From the IMG/VR virus record IMGVR_UViG_3300023174_000075, positions 1 to 64,000 of that record: a DNA stretch of 64,000 nucleotides; one strand, written 5' to 3'. This document shows positions 5,696 to 42,153 of this stretch, one piece after another. Position 1 is the stretch's first letter, and each line of letters opens with the position of its first letter. Origin of the DNA: a virus. A model generated the notes under the pieces. That model was not told the DNA's origin, searched no databases, and saw nothing but the letters and a program-made list of their open reading frames with translations. Made by a program: the position numbers and the translations under genes.

Positions 5696-6431
5696 AAAAA
5701 AAGTTTAATGAAATTGGGACTGTTATACCCTCCCCTGTATAACTTTCATCTTCTGGAATGAATTTCATTTCAACGTCTGGTTGAATACTATTATAATATT
5801 CACGTAATGCTCTAGCATCAGGTGCTAATAGGAAACCATCTACAAAATCACGAATTGATTTTAATTCACGATCACTATTGATAGAAGTAATTATATATTT
5901 TAAACGAGTAGTAACATCGTATGAGCCATTTGGATTTACTTTTGTTAATCCTTTAATTTCAGCATCAATTTTCTTTTCATCACCGTGTGTTAATAATTTA
6001 AATGTTACTGTATTACCTGATTTAGGTAAATCAAAGGTAAAATCATTACCTTTTTTAAATAATGATTCATCAATTTTCTTTTCTTCTAATTTAGATAAAT
6101 CAACAGTTGCCTCTAACTCTTTTCCACGGCCATCAGTGTATTTAAACTGATATTCAGCTCCATATCCTAAAATACGTGCTGAAATTAATATTGCATTTTT
6201 ATCACCAATTAATAAATCATCATAATTAAATGGTGTTACAATTAATGACTGCAATAATTTATCAATTACAGTGCCTTGGCGAATGAAATTGCTATTAGTA
6301 AGGATATCTTCTTCCTTAGCTGTCATATACTTCATTTCAATTTCACCTTTAGATAGTGGTGATTCTTTTGGATACAGTAAACCTTTGGAGGGTAACGAAA
6401 CGACTTCTGTTGGTAACTTTAATTCTGCCAT
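5676..6431 (-). CDS. Baseplate hub assembly / tail assembly chaperone (T4 gp26-like)
   Basis: LPS.G..Y...MTAKEEDIL...D..AILI.ARI.GYG; ends ISLNFFWP; lies between tube and tape measure. Confidence 0.75.
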   Translation of the reverse strand: MAELKLPTEVVSLPSKGLLYPKESPLSKGEIEMKYMTAKEEDILTNSNFIRQGTVIDKLLQSLIVTPFNYDDLLIGDKNAILISARILGYGAEYQFKYTDGRGKELEATVDLSKLEEKKIDESLFKKGNDFTFDLPKSGNTVTFKLLTHGDEKKIDAEIKGLTKVNPNGSYDVTTRLKYIITSINSDRELKSIRDFVDGFLLAPDARALREYYNSIQPDVEMKFIPEDESYTGEGITVPISLNFFWPDSGV

Positions 6432-27511: not shown

Positions 27512-28039
27512 TTATGTAGTTGTTTTATATTTCCATTTAAATCCGCCTGATTTTTTAATTTTATTTAATGCACAAGTACTAATATTAGTTATACCTGTTT
27601 GTCGTTGTGCTTCAGACACAGATGGGTATGTCTGGATATAATTATTATTTAGATCAAATTGATGTACAGGCTTTGATGTGTATCCTCCAACACTCCAATT
27701 ATTTTTTCCTAACATTGATTTACTAATTTTTTGTTTAGTTATATCAGATTTAGGGAAATGGTATTTATTAGAAGGACATCCAACACCTTTTTTACTCATA
27801 TTATAAAATAATGGATTTTCATATGCATTAAAATATTCAATCCAATATTCTTCCATTTCTTGTTTAAACTCTTCAGGTCCTTCCCACAATGTAACTCGTT
27901 CAAAATTTTCTTTATTATGTTTTTTAACTGCTATTTTTAATCTAAATCCACTTCCTAAATAATTAGGATTATTAGCACTATGACTTCCTATATATTTTTT
28001 ACCATTAATTTTATTATGTGTGCAATATACTATAGCCAT
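27512..28039 (-). mobile_element. Free-standing GIY-YIG homing endonuclease (Seg-like, NUMOD domains)
   Basis: IVY...NKINGKKYIGS, YLGSG, E.YWI, YN; TKQKISKS; KPVHQFDL....Y.S..EA.R...GFKWKY. Confidence 0.85.
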
Positions 28040-35874: not shown

Positions 35875-36425
35875 AATATTGTTTTTTTCTCGTGTCCTAT
35901 AATTAATGTAGGATCAATATAAGATTTAAATCCTGCATTTCTAGCTTTTTCTTGGAATGTAAAATCTTCCCATTGGTCTGGATTTAATGGTTCGAATGGA
36001 TCTATTATACGATCAAATACTTCTGCTTTAACAAGCATAAAACCCATACCATTTGCTTTAACTTCTATTAAATCTGTTTTAAAGGCTATATCATCAATAG
36101 TCATTGTTTTACCCTCTAAATCACAACATGCTAATAATGTAGGGGATTTTTTATATATACCTGATACTATTGGTTTATTATGTTGGATTAACTTTTCAAG
36201 TTGCATAAAATTAAATACCTGGTCATTATCAATCCACATGTAATGAGTGGGTCTAAATAGTTTAGCTCTATCTAATAGTGCTTGTCTATTATAAAATATA
36301 TTAGGTACATAACCAGATACATGAAACCATTTCCATTCAGGAGGTATGTTAAAAAGAACATTAGTCCAGCTGTCTAAGAAATTATTAGAAAATTCTCGAC
36401 CAGGTAAAATAAAACCTATTTTCAT
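35871..36425 (-). CDS. GT-A fold glycosyltransferase-like protein
   Basis: WIDNDQ (DxD), GMGF.LVK..VF, EDF.F...A..AG...DP....GH. Confidence 0.75.
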   Translation of the reverse strand: MKIGFILPGREFSNNFLDSWTNVLFNIPPEWKWFHVSGYVPNIFYNRQALLDRAKLFRPTHYMWIDNDQVFNFMQLEKLIQHNKPIVSGIYKKSPTLLACCDLEGKTMTIDDIAFKTDLIEVKANGMGFMLVKAEVFDRIIDPFEPLNPDQWEDFTFQEKARNAGFKSYIDPTLIIGHEKKTIL

Positions 36426-36667
36426 TTATTATTTATTTTTTTCATTTGACGTGCTGTTTTCTTTTCCTGTTTAGCTTCTTTAGCACCTTGTTTCATTGCT
36501 TTTTCAGCACCTGGTTTATATTTAATATCAACACTTATTGGACCATGGTGTTTATCTAGATTATATATCCATGTCTCTATAGTATATTCATCTTCATATA
36601 CTTTAGTAAACTTACGTGGAGTAGGTTCAATAACTATTTCTTTAGGTCTTCCTCTTCTTTCTATCAT
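36422..36667 (-). CDS. Small basic protein with AT-hook
   Basis: RRGRPK at N-terminus. Confidence 0.65.
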   Translation of the reverse strand: MIERRGRPKEIVIEPTPRKFTKVYEDEYTIETWIYNLDKHHGPISVDIKYKPGAEKAMKQGAKEAKQEKKTARQMKKINNK

Positions 36668-36677
36668 AACGTTAAAT

Positions 36678-36701
36678 TAAAAAAGGGACTTTGCAGTCCC
36701 T
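36678..36701 (-). terminator. Intrinsic terminator
   Basis: AGGGACT-GCAA-AGTCCCT-TTTTT with GNRA loop. Confidence 0.8.
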
Positions 36702-36705
36702 AATA

Positions 36706-36963
36706 TTATACTCTTGCGCCTGCTGCTTTACCAGCTGCGGTTTTGTAAAATGGTACACCGTTAACGTTCTTTTTCTTATCTAACCACTGATCTTTAGTAT
36801 GTTTAATACCAAATAAATAATATTCAGCTTGACGTTTATTACCTTGTGGTATTAGTGCTGCTCCATCCCAGTTATGCATTTTATTTACTCCATTAATACG
36901 AACGTAATGTGCTACTGTTCCGTCTGCCGATACTAATTTTTGTGTTTCTAGTGTTTCTTTCAT
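36706..36963 (-). CDS. Hypothetical protein
   Basis: KMHNWDGAALIP...EYYLFG. Confidence 0.7.
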   Translation of the reverse strand: MKETLETQKLVSADGTVAHYVRINGVNKMHNWDGAALIPQGNKRQAEYYLFGIKHTKDQWLDKKKNVNGVPFYKTAAGKAAGARV

Positions 36964-36998
36964 ACGTTTTTATTTTAAAGGTACGAAAGTTATTTTGA

Positions 36999-38015
36999 CT
37001 AGTCTAAATCTTCTAAACCAGTGTCGTCTTTTTTTAAATCACGTTCAATATCTCTCATTTCACCTATCGCCCATTGTTTTTGATCACGTGTTAACTCACT
37101 ATTAACTGCATTTTCTACAAATGGAAAAAATTCATCGTCTGGTAGTTTATATAATGCCGCAAAAAATAATTCACGAACACGAGCATCTTCTACATCGCTT
37201 TCAGCATATATTTTATTGATAGCATCATATAGGAATTTACCAAAGCGCAAATCATTTGGTTCATTAGATAATTTATCTATAGCACCCACAATAGCTTGAT
37301 TTTTTTCTTTATCAGCACCAAATCCTTCTGTACCAATAATTTCATATAATCCTTTTACAATTTCATGTACAAGCATTGGGAAACATAAGGCACGAGCTTT
37401 AATAACAAACTGCTCATTTTCTTCATCATATTCCATCTCACTTTCACCCCCTTGTGGTGTTTGTCCTTGTGCTAATGCTGCTAATAACATAGCAATAGCA
37501 TTTTCATCATCGTAAATACCAAATGCTAGTTTTAGTATTTCATTATATTTTTCTACTAATGCTGGATTGATATCATCAAGATATTCTTTAAATAACATAA
37601 AACCAAAAGCGCCTCTAATTGATGCTCCTTGTGTTATACCATTGATAATACGGCGTTTTGCTTTTAATTTTTCAGGATCATCTTCACCAAAATCAGGTAA
37701 TGTTGGGTCTTCTTGTGGTGGAGGATTTTGTAAACTAAAATCATTTCCTATTTTAGCATCAATTCTAATATTAGCATAGTCAATAATAGGATAAGCATCA
37801 GTTACCATTTGAGCTGCTACCATTTCAAGTTCATCACGATATCCTTCTTCAGCATCAATAATTTCATCTAATACTGCTTTAGAACGTACCATTGTTTGCA
37901 TCAATGACTTATTACCAAGCATTGAACGTAATGATTCACCAGACTTACCTTTTAAAGAAGCCATGGTTTTAGGGGAGAATATTTTTTCGTATTCTACTTC
38001 TAATAAATTAGGCAT
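36999..38015 (-). CDS. Conserved hypothetical protein, putative internal virion protein
   Basis: KRRIIN.I.QGA, FP.LVHE.VKG.YE, E..DLR.G. Confidence 0.7.
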   Translation of the reverse strand: MPNLLEVEYEKIFSPKTMASLKGKSGESLRSMLGNKSLMQTMVRSKAVLDEIIDAEEGYRDELEMVAAQMVTDAYPIIDYANIRIDAKIGNDFSLQNPPPQEDPTLPDFGEDDPEKLKAKRRIINGITQGASIRGAFGFMLFKEYLDDINPALVEKYNEILKLAFGIYDDENAIAMLLAALAQGQTPQGGESEMEYDEENEQFVIKARALCFPMLVHEIVKGLYEIIGTEGFGADKEKNQAIVGAIDKLSNEPNDLRFGKFLYDAINKIYAESDVEDARVRELFFAALYKLPDDEFFPFVENAVNSELTRDQKQWAIGEMRDIERDLKKDDTGLEDLD

Positions 38016-38262
38016 TCTTTTTTGATTTAAAGCGTTTAATTACTTGTTTCAACATTTCAGCTTCTTTCATTGTCGCCTTTGCTTTTGGAGCAGGATTAAC
38101 ATTAGGATTTCCTAATGGACGACGTGGTTTCTTTTCAGCTGGTTTGCCTGGTGCTACTGCAGGACCTGGTGTTTCTCTTGGTTTAGAGGGTGCAGGAGCA
38201 TTTTCATTCAATTCTTGATTAATAATACGGCGTATAGTTTCGCGTAATTGTTGTTTAGTCAT
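38008..38262 (-). CDS. Small Pro/Lys-rich putative internal protein
   Basis: MTKQQLRETIRRIINQELNE leader. Confidence 0.65.
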   Translation of the reverse strand: MTKQQLRETIRRIINQELNENAPAPSKPRETPGPAVAPGKPAEKKPRRPLGNPNVNPAPKAKATMKEAEMLKQVIKRFKSKKNA

Positions 38263-38401
38263 TCGTTACGTTTGTCAATAAATATTCCGAAACATAAATC
38301 CCATGAGCACCTGATACAGTAATACCACGAGCACTTAAAGCATCACCAACAAAGTGTACATTTGGATATTCATTTAATGCTAAATTAGTATAGTTTACTA
38401 G
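38255..38401 (-). pseudogene. Displaced (probably original) 3' end of the FAD oxidoreductase gene, 48 codons
   Basis: Translates LVNYTNLALNEYPNVHFVGDALSARGITVSGAHGIYVSEYLLTNVTND*, homologous to the C-terminus of 39547..40881; no start codon; stop overlaps next ATG. Confidence 0.85.
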
Positions 38402-38409
38402 ATTAGTGG

Positions 38410-38839
38410 TTATATTTGATCTAGTATACTTTTTAAATAATTAACATTGTTATATAAATCTAAAGCAGTATTTATTATATTTTGTTGTTCTATTTTGTCT
38501 ACATTACTATAGTATTCGGATAATACTTTAAGATTATCTAAATTATTATTAAACGTATCTATATTAATTTTTAAATATTTTTGTTCTTCCATAGTAAGTA
38601 TATTTTTATTGTATATATCTTCTGCAAAAGAAATAATATTTTGAATTTTATTAATACCCTGTATTAAAGTTTCAATACTTTCTATTATTAACATTTTTAC
38701 TTTCTTGTTTTAACTGAATTAATTCTGCAAATTTATTTAAATTTACTTTATTATTTTTAATAGAAGTACGAATATTGTTTGTTAAAGTATTAACATTTTC
38801 TTTAATAACATCTTTTGATATTTCTGATAATTTTATCAT
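38410..38839 (-). pseudogene. MIKL-leader gene interrupted by a frameshift (55-aa and 94-aa pieces)
   Basis: ATG 38839 MIKLSEISKDVIKE... stops at 38672; annotated ORF 38410..38694 continues in the +1 frame. Confidence 0.55.
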
Positions 38840-38851
38840 ATTAATAAATAT

Positions 38852-39496
38852 TTATTGTTTATATTTCCATATATAACTATATGCTGTTTTTTGACGTCCT
38901 GCTGCACAATCTGCTATACTATTACCGGATTTACCTAAACACCTTCCTGCGTCCTGTGCTGATTGGTATTCATTAAGTAGATTATTTTGAAGGTCATATT
39001 GGAGTACAGGTTTATAATGACTCAAATAGTTTTTAGGTTTACCTCTAAGTGCATCTCCTATTTTGTCAGCCCATAATATATTTCTACCTTTGTTTGCTTT
39101 ACTAATATTAGGTTGAAGTTTACCTGTTCTTACTTGTGATATTTTATGTTTAGTTTCTTCCGATAATGGTTTTCGTTTTATACCTTTTAATGCTTTACTA
39201 ATTTTAACACCAGTACCTACTTTATGTGGTTTTCTCATTTTTTGTTTTTGTTCTTCTGTGTATTGTTCAGGACCACCACCTCCATTATTTTTATTTTCTA
39301 ATTCAAATCCCCATGCCTTAAATTGACATATCCAATATTGCTCCCAAAATTTCCATTCAGTATCGTTTACAATATCTATTTCAGTATATGTTATATCTTT
39401 ATATTTTCTTTTATGTATATTTTGTCTCCATTTACCTCTAGTTTTACCTATATAAAATGGTATATCTTCTTTTTCTAACACATAAATACTAGTCAT
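38852..39496 (-). mobile_element. Free-standing GIY-YIG homing endonuclease with NUMOD domains
   Basis: SIY.L...FYIGKT, E.YWI, L.N.N.GG.G; SEETKHKIS; KPVLQYDL...Y.SA..A.R...TAY.YIWKY. Confidence 0.85.
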
Positions 39497-39546
39497 GATA
39501 TATTATTTATAATAAATATATAAGAGACCAGAAATTAAGTACTTTC

Positions 39547-40881
39547 CTATATTTTTCTTAAGATACTTTCAGCTACATATATAGCTTGTGCACCACTAAC
39601 TGTTATTCCTCTTGCTGATAGTGCGTCCCCTACAAAATAAACATTTGGGTACTCTATTAAAGACAAATCAAAGTGATTTGTTAAAGGCTCTGGTGCGGCA
39701 TACTTGCACTCGGGTATGTAGATTCCATAATCATCACCAAAGTTGAATACTTTATTCATATCATCAATAAAATTCATGACATAATCCATGTATCCTCCCA
39801 TTACTCTTTTAACAAAACCATTAAATGTATCTTCACCAATTGGGTGAGCTACTACAGTTATACCTTCAGATGTTAATCCTGGTTGGCGAGTAAAATTAGG
39901 TGAATAATATAATCCTTCATTGTTTATTTGTAGCTTATTAACAACATCTCTTGACCACTTAAATGGGTCTTCAATACCTTTAATTTCCATTAATATACCA
40001 AAATTGGTCATATCGTTTCGGAATTGTTTGCCCTTTTTCGCATGGCCGTTGTACGTAATATCGCCGTACGTTTCCTCCACGGCCACGTAAGCGGCATTGT
40101 TATTAGTACAAAAGCTACGTAGAGAAACATTTTCATATTTTTGATATAATTTGAAATCATATGATATGTCTATTAATTTTTGAAAATATTTTTGTGGTGC
40201 TTCAAATCGAACACCTATTTGAACTGATTTAGGTTCAGTTGGTAATTTATAGTTGTCTGATAATGATTGTGCAAAGTCAATACCTGATTTGCCTACAGCA
40301 AATATTAATTTGTCATATCCAATAGGTGATAAATAACTCCTACCCGGAGCTATTGGTTTACTATCACACAATACTGTTAAAGCATCTTCTTTAAAATTTA
40401 TATCTGTTACTTCAGTTTCCCATTTAAATTTAACACCTTTATCAACTAAATATTGATACCATGCTTTAGCGATCTCGTGTAAATAGTTACTACCAATATG
40501 CCATACAGGAAATAAACGTAAACCAAAGTATGGTTTAATAAAGTCTGGTTCAGCTACTGGATCAGAACAGAATATTTCTTCTGGTTTAGGGTGAAAACGT
40601 CTGAAATTACTAATAACTTGATCCATCAACTCCATTGCTTTATTCTCACCACAATACTTAGACAATTGACCACCGATTGCTATATGATATGTTAATTTGC
40701 CATCACTCCAGCCACCAGCACCTAACATACCTGTCATTACCTCTTCAGGTAAGCGATTATGTGGATCATTACCTTTGTCTATAATGGTAATCAATTCACC
40801 AGGATAGCCATTATCTACTAATTTAGTTGCAGCGTTTATGCCCGCTACACCGGCACCTACGATTACGATTTTCTTTTGCAT
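39547..40881 (-). CDS. FAD-dependent oxidoreductase (uncharacterised dehydrogenase family); start revised to MQKKIVIVGAG
   Basis: GAGVAG Rossmann motif, G.LGAG.WSDGKL, GVRFE, RSFC.N, NGH, VGD...RG. Confidence 0.85.
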   Translation of the reverse strand: MQKKIVIVGAGVAGINAATKLVDNGYPGELITIIDKGNDPHNRLPEEVMTGMLGAGGWSDGKLTYHIAIGGQLSKYCGENKAMELMDQVISNFRRFHPKPEEIFCSDPVAEPDFIKPYFGLRLFPVWHIGSNYLHEIAKAWYQYLVDKGVKFKWETEVTDINFKEDALTVLCDSKPIAPGRSYLSPIGYDKLIFAVGKSGIDFAQSLSDNYKLPTEPKSVQIGVRFEAPQKYFQKLIDISYDFKLYQKYENVSLRSFCTNNNAAYVAVEETYGDITYNGHAKKGKQFRNDMTNFGILMEIKGIEDPFKWSRDVVNKLQINNEGLYYSPNFTRQPGLTSEGITVVAHPIGEDTFNGFVKRVMGGYMDYVMNFIDDMNKVFNFGDDYGIYIPECKYAAPEPLTNHFDLSLIEYPNVYFVGDALSARGITVSGAQAIYVAESILRKI

Positions 40882-40886
40882 ATAAT

Positions 40887-40917
40887 TAAATATAAGTTTT
40901 TTGTTTTGACGAGCAAA
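40887..40917 (-). promoter_or_regulatory. Bacteroidota-like sigma promoter TTTG-N19-TATATTTA
   Basis: Spacing matches the -33 TTTG / -7 TAnnTTTG consensus; 5 nt upstream of revised ATG. Confidence 0.5.
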
Positions 40918-40998
40918 GAGAGAGCGCACCTTTTGAGTGCGCCACAGCTGCATTAATGTTATTTATTAATCGAACAGGCTATGAATCTGTTCTATATG

Positions 40999-42153
40999 TT
41001 ATTGTAAAGATGGTGTCTTATTGTAATCTAATACTAATGTTTTGCCACCTCTAGTTGGTTCTAATTTTGCTTGTTTATAAGGTATTGTTCTAAAATCTAT
41101 ACCATGAGATTGATTTTCGTGACGAGCTAACATTATTACAGGTTTATCATCAGCTATTAGATCATCTACGTCATTCATGTTTCTAGTAGTTTTAACAGTT
41201 AATACACCATTTTCTAAACTATAATCAGTTGATGAAAATGAACGTTGAACGATTTTGGCTTTATCAGGCCCAAATGTAATTTTTTCTAAATTATTATCTA
41301 TACCGGGGTAGTTAAGGATAAATATTCTACCATATCTTCTTTCATCTTTAGGATCCATCATATCCATTACTTTAGGTTGTAATGGATTTGATTTAATGAT
41401 TAGATTAGGAATTTTACCCTCTTTACCACTTTCTATAAATTTATTAAGTAGTTCACCAAAGTTTTTCCTTTCACTACTCCACCAATATGGACCATCTTTT
41501 TTAATCGATAGATTTTGCTCACCATTTTTAGTAACTAATGTTACGTCACCTTTAAGACCTTGTTTACTACCTGTATTACCCATTCCTTTAGCTTGTGTTA
41601 CATCAGGTATTAAAGTTTCTTTATTATCATCATCGATAAATTTAACACTTATAGGTCCACCATTTTGAGTAATAGCATCATTAACGGCATTAACTAATTC
41701 TTTTTCATTTGATACACCAGCTCCACCACCTTCTTGTCCACCTAAATTAGCTGATTTATATATTGAACTTACATTTAATGTTGTTTCTTGTCCATTAAGT
41801 TGTCCTATAATTCTAACGTTACGAGCGTTTTGTACATTTCTAAGTGCTCCTACTAAATTGGATTTTTCGTTTTTATCTTTAGCATAGAATGTTTCATCAC
41901 CTACTACTACATAATCTGCTACAAAATCATCCTCACCTTTAGCACCTATTTTAAATGGATCTTCATTATAAAATATAGTAGTAAATTGATCAGGACGTTT
42001 TTTTATTGAGTTAAGTGATAACATAGCTTCTTCTAATTCTAATTCATTAACCATTTCTTGTAATATGGTTAATTTAGTTGGATCGTTCAAATCAACGATT
42101 CCATCGTGGCAACGGTATGACCACTCTAATAATATTTTATCTATAACATTCAT
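40999..42153 (-). CDS. Putative PD-(D/E)XK (restriction-endonuclease-like) nuclease with internal-protein-type leader
   Basis: NE..LV...KGDV.L......LSIKK; leader MNVIDKILLEW...LEEA. Confidence 0.5.
   Translation of the reverse strand: MNVIDKILLEWSYRCHDGIVDLNDPTKLTILQEMVNELELEEAMLSLNSIKKRPDQFTTIFYNEDPFKIGAKGEDDFVADYVVVGDETFYAKDKNEKSNLVGALRNVQNARNVRIIGQLNGQETTLNVSSIYKSANLGGQEGGGAGVSNEKELVNAVNDAITQNGGPISVKFIDDDNKETLIPDVTQAKGMGNTGSKQGLKGDVTLVTKNGEQNLSIKKDGPYWWSSERKNFGELLNKFIESGKEGKIPNLIIKSNPLQPKVMDMMDPKDERRYGRIFILNYPGIDNNLEKITFGPDKAKIVQRSFSSTDYSLENGVLTVKTTRNMNDVDDLIADDKPVIMLARHENQSHGIDFRTIPYKQAKLEPTRGGKTLVLDYNKTPSLQ

Follow-up and report, generated by a model that had tools for sequence, protein, structure and literature searches.

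The window analysed here comprises the first 64 kb (64,000 nucleotides, nt) of a linear virus record, IMGVR_UViG_3300023174_000075 (124 kb, estimated to be 74% complete), and carries myophage structural genes for a tail sheath, major head protein, portal and large terminase; the runs that hold this DNA come from lake and freshwater metagenomes. In this phage genome, the gene for an FAD/NAD(P)-binding oxidoreductase adjoins a cassette with a putative homing-endonuclease gene, and the 3' end of the oxidoreductase gene is present twice: once completing the intact gene and once, behind the cassette, as a start-less fragment that we call the stub. Every gene around the cassette lies on the minus strand, in the order oxidoreductase, spacer, endonuclease, two small open reading frames (ORFs), stub and next gene:

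39547..40881, minus strand: oxidoreductase gene, FAD/NAD(P)-binding, 444 amino acids (aa) from MQKK; native body with a cassette-borne 3' end.
39547-40953, minus strand: longest oxidoreductase ORF in the ORF list; the start at 40881 is preferred.
38402..39728, no strand assigned: whole inserted segment, 1327 nt in place of ~45 nt of native gene.
39685..39729, minus strand: altered patch at the putative target, reading YGIYIPECKYAAPEP; native counterpart WGMYIPEVKYLSPEP.
39547..39684, minus strand: substitute 3' end, the last 45 codons and the stop (LTNH...ILRKI, stop), cassette-borne.
39497..39546, minus strand: spacer of 50 nt from the new stop to the endonuclease ATG, with TATAAATA at 39504-39511.
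38852..39496, minus strand: predicted GIY-YIG homing endonuclease gene, free-standing and intact, 214 aa, with I-TevI-like domain order.
38672..38839, minus strand: orf55 (MIKL...), 55 aa, an orphan small ORF.
38410..38694, minus strand: orf94, 94 aa, an orphan small ORF; it has 23 nt in common with orf55, and its end lies 9 nt short of the right junction.
38255..38401, minus strand: stranded native 3' end (the stub), 48 codons and a stop, without a start codon.
38008..38262, minus strand: downstream gene of the recipient, 84 aa, which marks the recipient's original synteny.

The oxidoreductase matches Pfam Pyr_redox_2 and a PHROG 'dehydrogenase' family, its NCBIfam matches being generic Rossmann models only, and its intact 444-aa ORF can be aligned through to the end of its relatives. 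Because a terminator-like hairpin (40923-40943, minus strand) falls inside the 5' extension of the longest ORF, the gene most likely starts at 40881 and not at 40953. From exactly position 38401 onwards, the start-less frame resembles the gene end, and its stop (38255-38257) overlaps the start of the next gene (ATG at 38262). An initial annotation of this DNA, made from the letters alone, had noticed that the gene end occurs twice, and its coordinates and codon list were exact; it had placed a GIY-YIG gene and one MIKL-type gene between the copies, both of which are present, but two small ORFs, not one, stand beside the endonuclease gene.

Contigs from other assemblies confirm the arrangement. 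A 1925-nt contig from a different study spans 38279-40203 with 29 differences and so extends across the two junctions; a third study contributes a contig over 38231-38889, and one from what is likely the source sample spans 38372-39807 with zero differences. The duplicated peptide, taken alone, could point to an assembly chimera, a possibility that the initial annotation had itself raised, or to a spliced intron or intein, but we regard these readings as practically dismissed: both junctions are bridged by contigs of other studies, the oxidoreductase stops before a separate endonuclease ORF, the substitute end encodes a complete C-terminus and closes with a stop of its own, and an Rfam search of 37900-41100 gave no match, and hence no intron, at E <= 1.

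Empty sites were found as well. In one further contig, position 39729 is joined to 38401 with the 1327 nt absent and with ~44 letters of its own between the two positions (a figure obtained by arithmetic on the record length), and the loose ends at 38400/38401 of the source-sample contig and the 1925-nt contig run on into letters reading the native ..EVKYLSPEP. From this joint and these native-reading ends, the insert is 38402-39728, replacing ~45 nt of the native allele, which maps the junction against cassette-free alleles as the initial annotation had proposed. Empty and occupied alleles occur within the same metagenomes, so the locus shows a presence/absence polymorphism at a single site.

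Which of the two ends is native is evident from relatives. A scan of viral contigs returned 441 relatives of the oxidoreductase gene, the best 80 of which were kept. The stub is identical to the gene end of the closest cassette-free relative, L001, at 96 of 102 nt (94%), and to that of another, L056, at 93 of 102, whereas the intact end matches the stub at only 65 of 102 nt (64%) and L001 at 66 of 102. Along the gene, identity changes in a mosaic fashion: over codons 290-370 the window matches L001 at 92-100%, but from about codon 380 its identity to every native allele falls to 0.65-0.82, under the native-native mean of 0.78-0.84. In L001, L052 and L056, the cassette-free gene is immediately followed by a homologue of the downstream gene (38008-38262), and the packing is as close in L056 (oxidoreductase ORF to 5299, next ORF from 5301) as it is between the stub and the ATG that follows. 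The downstream fragment is therefore the recipient's own gene end, as had been proposed from the sequence, and the end now in use is imported; relatives thus speak against the converse, that the downstream fragment is the derived copy.

The substitute end has close kin elsewhere. Its nearest relative is the endonuclease-linked end of L083 (86% nt identity), and end, spacer and endonuclease gene are colinear with those of L081/L082 (76.4% over 966 nt), L084 and L083. This colinearity also bears on a local tandem duplication of the gene end, in which the copies would have diverged in place and the endonuclease gene would have arrived later between them. Two tandem copies of one peptide are what such an event would leave, but we consider it very improbable, in that the intact copy groups with linked ends of other phages and not with its neighbour, and that it would require change at 36% of sites in one copy alongside 94% likeness to a relative in the other.

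For a comparison across the population, we set 9 endonuclease-linked alleles against 97 others, after dropping 14 loci (divergent paralogue-like genes, split genes, extraction artefacts and repeats of one contig) and the automatic exclusion of 3 more with incomplete or interrupted reading frames. The gene bodies of the 9 linked alleles are 0.75-0.84 identical to native ones, a level no different from native versus native (0.815), whereas their last 55 codons are only 0.64-0.70 identical (native versus native, 0.77). In the tree of 3' ends, the linked alleles form one group, with 1 label change (8.8 on average, and never fewer than 6, in 500 shuffles), but in the tree of gene bodies they are fully scattered, with 9 label changes. 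The substitute end is thus an old lineage of alleles, carried into many backgrounds together with the endonuclease gene. Because a single clade of linked ends sits on scattered bodies, the end was not recoded for the present insertion, and the idea that the cassette recoded the end in order to repair its target gene does not hold, given the two trees and the 86% identity of the L083 end.

Loss is represented too: L142 (380-830) carries a resistant-type end, 30 nt of cassette spacer and then a native stub with the usual downstream genes, and is the footprint of an endonuclease gene that was lost while both ends remained. The endonuclease gene is likewise absent behind the resistant-type ends of L146 and L148. 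Together with the empty alleles, these loci make up the series of gain, spread and loss expected of a homing element.

All 12 endonuclease-linked loci of the ordinary gene (on 11 contigs) have 1-4 residue changes in the motif [V]KYLSPEPLV. Six altered versions occur (KYVSAEPLV, KYASPEPLT, KYASAEPLT, KYAAPEPLT, CKYLSPEVKV and CKYLSAEPLV), to which the window adds a seventh, CKYAAPEPLT. Among 99 unlinked loci, defined by at least 700 nt visible downstream with no endonuclease gene there, 93 have the native motif PEVKYLSPEPLV, 85 of them in full and 8 in part because long C-terminal tails cut the extracted stretch; 1 of the 99 is an extraction artefact. Four more loci were set aside, in which an endonuclease of another type lies behind a paralogue-like gene; in these (L086, L088, L089 and L090) the endonuclease is 84-85% identical to the type found at the 5' end of the oxidoreductase gene in L056, and the gene upstream of it is 44% identical to the oxidoreductase.

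The altered patch (39685..39729) has unusual G/C-ending codons, with a G+C content at third codon positions (GC3) of 0.40-0.47 as against 0.15-0.22 in native alleles. A search for nucleotide positions that are conserved in 90% or more of native alleles but differ in 8 or all of the 9 linked ones came back empty, and so there is no single diagnostic base. Since the motif is altered in 12 of 12 linked alleles, just where stubs begin, the KYLSPEPLV stretch is a likely cut site, and we infer that the patch represents the recognition or cleavage region in a form made resistant. The suggestion in the initial annotation that the odd ECKYAAPEP stretch is an altered cut site is thus likely to be right.

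The two ends of the window differ strongly in codon choice. Over a shared peptide of 15 residues, 14 of the 15 codons differ, including both serine codon-family swaps, as against 7.5 expected from the codon usage of the window (P(>=14) = 2.4e-4), and for the full overlap the count is 23 of 30 same-residue codons as against 13.8 expected (P = 1.7e-4). Among 2631 pairs of cassette-free alleles with all 15 residues alike, which are not independent of one another, none reaches 14 (median 7, maximum 13). Compared with 77 native ends, the intact end differs at 6 to 15 codons, and at 14 or more in 4 of the 77; the value for its own stub is in the top 5%, a real excess but not a unique one. More generally, 44-58% of same-residue codons are spelled differently in linked and native ends, which is about saturation, and three other stub-bearing alleles differ from their own stubs at 15/25, 17/25 and 20/32 codons (60-68%). 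The comparison with saturation suggested earlier therefore has a clear outcome in the window, where the end is, as had been claimed, near-maximally recoded, but the description does not extend to the other stub-bearing alleles.

Codon usage of a donor was considered as the source of the recoding and rejected: the log-likelihood ratio of cassette ORFs versus genome is -4.3 (-3.5 for the stub), and because the substitute end fits the cassette ORFs no better than it fits the genome, donor codon usage offers no explanation. Alternatively, the end may have been selected to be unlike the resident stub, so that recombination between the two could not delete the endonuclease gene. The excess beyond saturation in both codon counts (14/15 and 23/30) is in line with this, as are the lower counts for the ends of L083 (~10/15) and L084 (~9/15), taken from the codon table, and the case of L142, where the endonuclease gene could be lost with both ends kept. 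We nevertheless think such adaptive recoding unlikely: the 60-68% of the three other stub-bearing alleles is near the 44-58% of linked versus native ends, the own-stub value is only in the top 5% for the window end, and the 5 linked alleles that were examined first all share the choices GAC, AGA and ATA, a long stub being absent from four of them. Native alleles have GAT (71/77), CGT (57/77) and ATT (54/77) at the same codons, and the sharing of GAC, AGA and ATA could reflect common descent or be part of resistance. The divergent spelling of the new end would, on these comparisons, be mainly an inherited mark of the old linked lineage, which was probably kept unlike the native alleles by selection for resistance to cutting.

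The 214-aa protein encoded by the cassette is, by profile and predicted structure, a GIY-YIG homing endonuclease with a modular DNA-binding region. Pfam identifies NUMOD1 (E 2.4e-7) and NUMOD3 (E 7.8e-5), both above cut-offs, its PHROG family is named 'homing endonuclease', and NCBIfam TIGR01453, 'group I intron endonuclease' (GIY-YIG subfamily), matches at E 1.2e-9, under its cut-off. Columns of the GIY..YIG..R..H..E..N pattern (Y5, Y15, G17, R24, H28, E52 and N68) are invariant in 12 relatives. The best match of a profile against PDB sequences, to UvrC, reached only E 0.21. An AlphaFold model of the protein has a mean predicted local distance difference test score (pLDDT) of 67, with 73-93 in the domains. 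Foldseek found no match to the whole model at E <= 0.001, and a second structure aligner placed predicted residues 1-71 near the I-TevI catalytic domain (Z 6.4, root-mean-square deviation [rmsd] 2.6, 68 aligned, 13% identity) and near UvrC GIY-YIG domains (Z 4.9-5.6), and residues 161-214 near the DNA-binding domain of I-HmuI (Z 7.1, rmsd 1.8, 53 aligned). As in I-TevI of phage T4, an N-terminal GIY-YIG domain is followed by a NUMOD3-type linker and a C-terminal DNA-binding domain of helix-turn-helix type; in contrast to the window, I-TevI is encoded by an intron, and likeness in sequence is weak (TIGR01453 under its cut-off; 13% identity in the fold alignment).

Different parts of the protein have different relatives. 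Residues 1-85 are 60% (51/85) identical to endonucleases at the 5' end of the oxidoreductase gene and 29% to the L015 group, whereas residues 151-214 are 86% (55/64) identical to the L015 group. The enzyme is a natural domain chimera, and the C-terminal likeness to the L015 group fits a shared target set by the C-terminal domain. The element is, to judge from its sequence, intact and probably active. Elsewhere in the window, a 175-aa ORF between structural genes (27512-28039, minus strand) has a C-terminal stretch (27524-27736) that is 38% identical to the NUMOD1-type domain of the endonuclease, and may be a second nuclease-related gene.

The locus combines an in-frame foreign end that restores the gene, a native stub downstream and discordant 5' and 3' histories, as in elements that replace the end of a gene, and we consider it probable that the endonuclease gene moves as one unit with the ~60 codons that precede it, the putatively cleavage-resistant 3' end of the oxidoreductase. 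During a mixed infection, the enzyme would cut cassette-free alleles in or beside the conserved ..PEVKYLSPEP/LV.. (the slash marking the supposed break). To the left of the break, repair would proceed by copying homologous donor DNA and so bring in the resistant end, the endonuclease gene and whatever follows in the donor, here the two AT-rich small ORFs. On the right side, donor and recipient would have no downstream DNA in common; the right side would therefore be joined non-homologously, at or near the break, and the recipient's last 48 codons would stay behind as a dead stub. Variable amounts of DNA would be lost to the right of the break at or near PEP/LV, and where donor and recipient share the downstream spacer, the native end would be almost wholly replaced. 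The gene is kept whole without intron or intein splicing, so that the splicing-free insertion of a cassette that supplies its own 3' end, as the initial annotation had it, agrees with the comparative data.

The stubs themselves bear on how the right side is formed. Long stubs are present in only some alleles, and their starts vary: the stub begins 0 nt 3' of PEP in the window (L/V), ~3 nt (one codon later) in L142, ~15 nt (~5 codons later) in L015 and ~42 nt (~14 codons later) in L144. At the join in L144 a donor ORF is truncated after 21 codons, which argues for a non-homologous right junction. In L084 only the last 8 native codons are kept, fused to the endonuclease ORF, and in L080 ~3.

A different view of the right side takes the stub for a working second homology arm that starts at the cut site, with the whole unit homing precisely into native alleles, and the model of the yeast WHO elements proposes exactly such an arm (Coughlan et al. 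2020, PMC7282813). Retention of the arrangement in diverged copies from three studies would suit it, as would the starts of the window and L142 stubs, which fall within ~3 nt of each other. We rate it as rather unlikely, somewhat more so than adaptive recoding, for among the 11 distinct linked contigs (12 loci) only L015 has a long stub (L144, found separately, is a second), L084 and L080 keep only their few native codons, the downstream sequence of L083 being too short to judge, stub starts vary by up to ~42 nt with a truncated donor ORF at one of the joins, and the window stub is 94% like the local lineage and retains its overlap with the ATG of the next gene. The two models are compatible, in that a scar left by one-sided repair could act as an arm in later rounds.

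Several observations weigh against the mobile unit with one-sided repair that we favour. The arrangement, stub included, is kept at 96-98.5% identity in other samples, which also fits the model with a second arm. Five of the 99 unlinked loci vary in the motif (KYLSPEVKV in three, KYLNDEVLV in two), and the resistant-type ends without an endonuclease gene in L142, L146 and L148 mean that the link between the two is not absolute. The Pfam GIY-YIG model PF01541 gave no match to the protein at E <= 1, and fold scores of Z 6.4 and 7.1 are middling by the aligner's own note. The viral contigs contained no donor carrying orf55 and orf94, so the right junction is not reconstructable from them, and the loci that were counted are not independent, some being one contig fetched twice.

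The closest counterparts are the mORF 'gene hybrids' of fungal mitochondria, which the texts consulted describe for atp6 of Allomyces macrogynus and for atp6, atp9, cox2 and nad3 of Glomus (PMC3630166), together with C-terminal duplications of cob and atp6 in Endoconidiophora (PMC6279837). There, too, an in-frame foreign C-terminus is followed by an endonuclease ORF (GIY-YIG for Glomus atp9) and lastly by the native stub, and the identities reported for the native stub (91-98% to relatives) and for the inserted end (64-81%; PMC3630166) are much like the 94% and 64% of the phage locus. The hybrids differ in that their host is an organelle and not a bacteriophage, and the phage endonuclease ORF is separate from the host gene and not fused to it in frame; the phage locus also offers a view of the population, with linked ends forming one clade across scattered bodies, empty alongside occupied alleles in one sample and a footprint of loss.

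The yeast WHO elements at the aldolase gene FBA1 consist, in the account of Coughlan et al. (2020, PMC7282813), of an endonuclease gene and a resistance-giving FBA1 3' end. Resistance arises there by allelic differences at the cut site and not by interruption of the site (PMC7282813), as would also be the case in the phage; stubs of the old 3' end start near the cut site (a putative one in the phage), and trees of the 5' and 3' parts of the host gene are discordant in both. WHO enzymes, in contrast, are intein-derived LAGLIDADG-zinc finger proteins that act in a eukaryotic nucleus and at meiosis, cleavage and resistance are experimental findings in yeast where those in the phage are read from sequence, WHO clusters stack several elements where the phage locus has one, and most phage alleles have no long stub.

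In T4-like phages, free-standing endonucleases cut at a distance of hundreds of bp or more from their own genes, and an insertion leaves the gene that it enters encoding two polypeptides, as in nrdA of Aeh1, gene 60 of T4 and gene 43 of phage 25, according to a review (PMC2988022). The cassette shares with the Seg and Mob cases of intronless homing a free-standing GIY-YIG gene (here that of a myophage) adjoining the conserved gene that it presumably cuts, and co-conversion of flanking DNA with mosaic alleles. It differs from them in that the insertion lies at the putative cut site and the gene is unsplit thanks to a spare end. The text of that review makes no mention of duplicated, truncated or remnant gene ends, and the main texts of the open-licence papers and preprints covered (PMC10448857 and PMC2988022 among them) describe no duplication of a phage gene end by a homing endonuclease. 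The locus is not a new kind of system; it follows a known design that seems to be undescribed in this host group.

Other insertions and patches occur at the same gene. A second endonuclease family lies directly upstream of the oxidoreductase gene in L002 (2711-3993, the contig of L110), L056, L085, L087 and L091-L122; in L002, a native start of 23 codons is stranded upstream, fused to another ORF. Residue changes in the near-constant GAGVAGINAATKLVDNGYP stretch (GSG/GGG, ISAAL, ICAAT, INFAT) are found in 26 of 27 alleles with an upstream endonuclease, and this family would be the mirror image of the finding at the 3' end. In L081/L082 (L081: 701-2455) and L124 (3119-5185), the oxidoreductase is split into ORFs of ~172 and ~263 aa by an inserted ORF that sits at the variable middle of the gene and, in L081, has a weak NUMOD3 match; L146 (1368-2150) has the C-terminal half of the oxidoreductase only. 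The split gene is a third way of carrying an insertion at the oxidoreductase gene. In the window, codons 260-286 (40024-40104) form a patch of G/C-ending codons, with GC3 0.63 as against a median of 0.19, in a region at 95% residue identity. The patch is a haplotype of ~8-11 of 106 alleles (e.g., L003, L101, L103, L002, L005 and L006), shows no link to either endonuclease family and could have come from a relative richer in GC or be a further immunity patch.

The stretch that holds orf55 and orf94 has a GC content of 0.165-0.185 (~17%), and all Pfam matches of both ORFs are far under cut-off. For orf55 we found no Pfam or PHROG family and, in the viral contigs, two weak relatives at 36%; orf94 has no family above cut-off and no relative in the viral contigs. 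orf55 may be cargo or a remnant of the donor. A similar start run (M.K..L...I..I...E.), the 'MIKL-type' start, occurs in many small ORFs of related phages and was seen at 38008-38262 and 38672-38839 of the window, at 5965 and 6434 of L015, at 5301 of L056 and at 6035 of L080. Scans of the cassette, spacer included, for promoters and terminators found nothing above shuffles (15 found versus 18.5 expected), and TATAAATA is not enriched in the window (20 versus 24.7 expected). The word TATTTATA, read on the coding (minus) strand, precedes about nine eye-checked gene starts by 7-29 nt, among 16 plus-strand matches (5414, 6460, 7461, 20632, 21350, 22120, 33274, 44261 and 60050 being plus-strand match positions), and may be a promoter word of the phage, its overall count being not above shuffles. 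Among named phage records, megablast of 36000-42000 gave no match, and the relatives returned by protein search, in Campylobacter phages and other records, are all below 28% identity.

In usual accounts, homing endonucleases of phages lie between genes or split them. The oxidoreductase locus represents a third outcome, a spare and putatively resistant end, of which fungal mitochondria and yeast nuclei already provide examples. For annotators it is a warning that short pieces of a gene end which lack a start and adjoin a nuclease gene are scars and not errors. More tentatively, and as a possibility that we ourselves think unlikely, the synonymous sites of the oxidoreductase gene may record an arms race with homing endonucleases, in which linked ends are held beyond saturation from the native spelling, odd patches of G/C-ending codons (at the 5' GxGxxG and at codons 260-286) are scars of immunisation, and the spare 3' end, the spare 5' end and the split gene are outcomes of one repair process; if so, spelling divergence would guard linked ends both from cutting and from recombination that deletes the element. 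The locus presents a natural series, from empty alleles to occupied ones with or without a stub, a footprint of endonuclease loss, a domain-swapped enzyme and a mirror-image family at the 5' end, and so offers a testable system for how free-standing endonucleases reach genomes without matching flanks and where they cut, as well as bearing on the share that endonucleases have in the mosaicism and odd codon usage of phage core genes.

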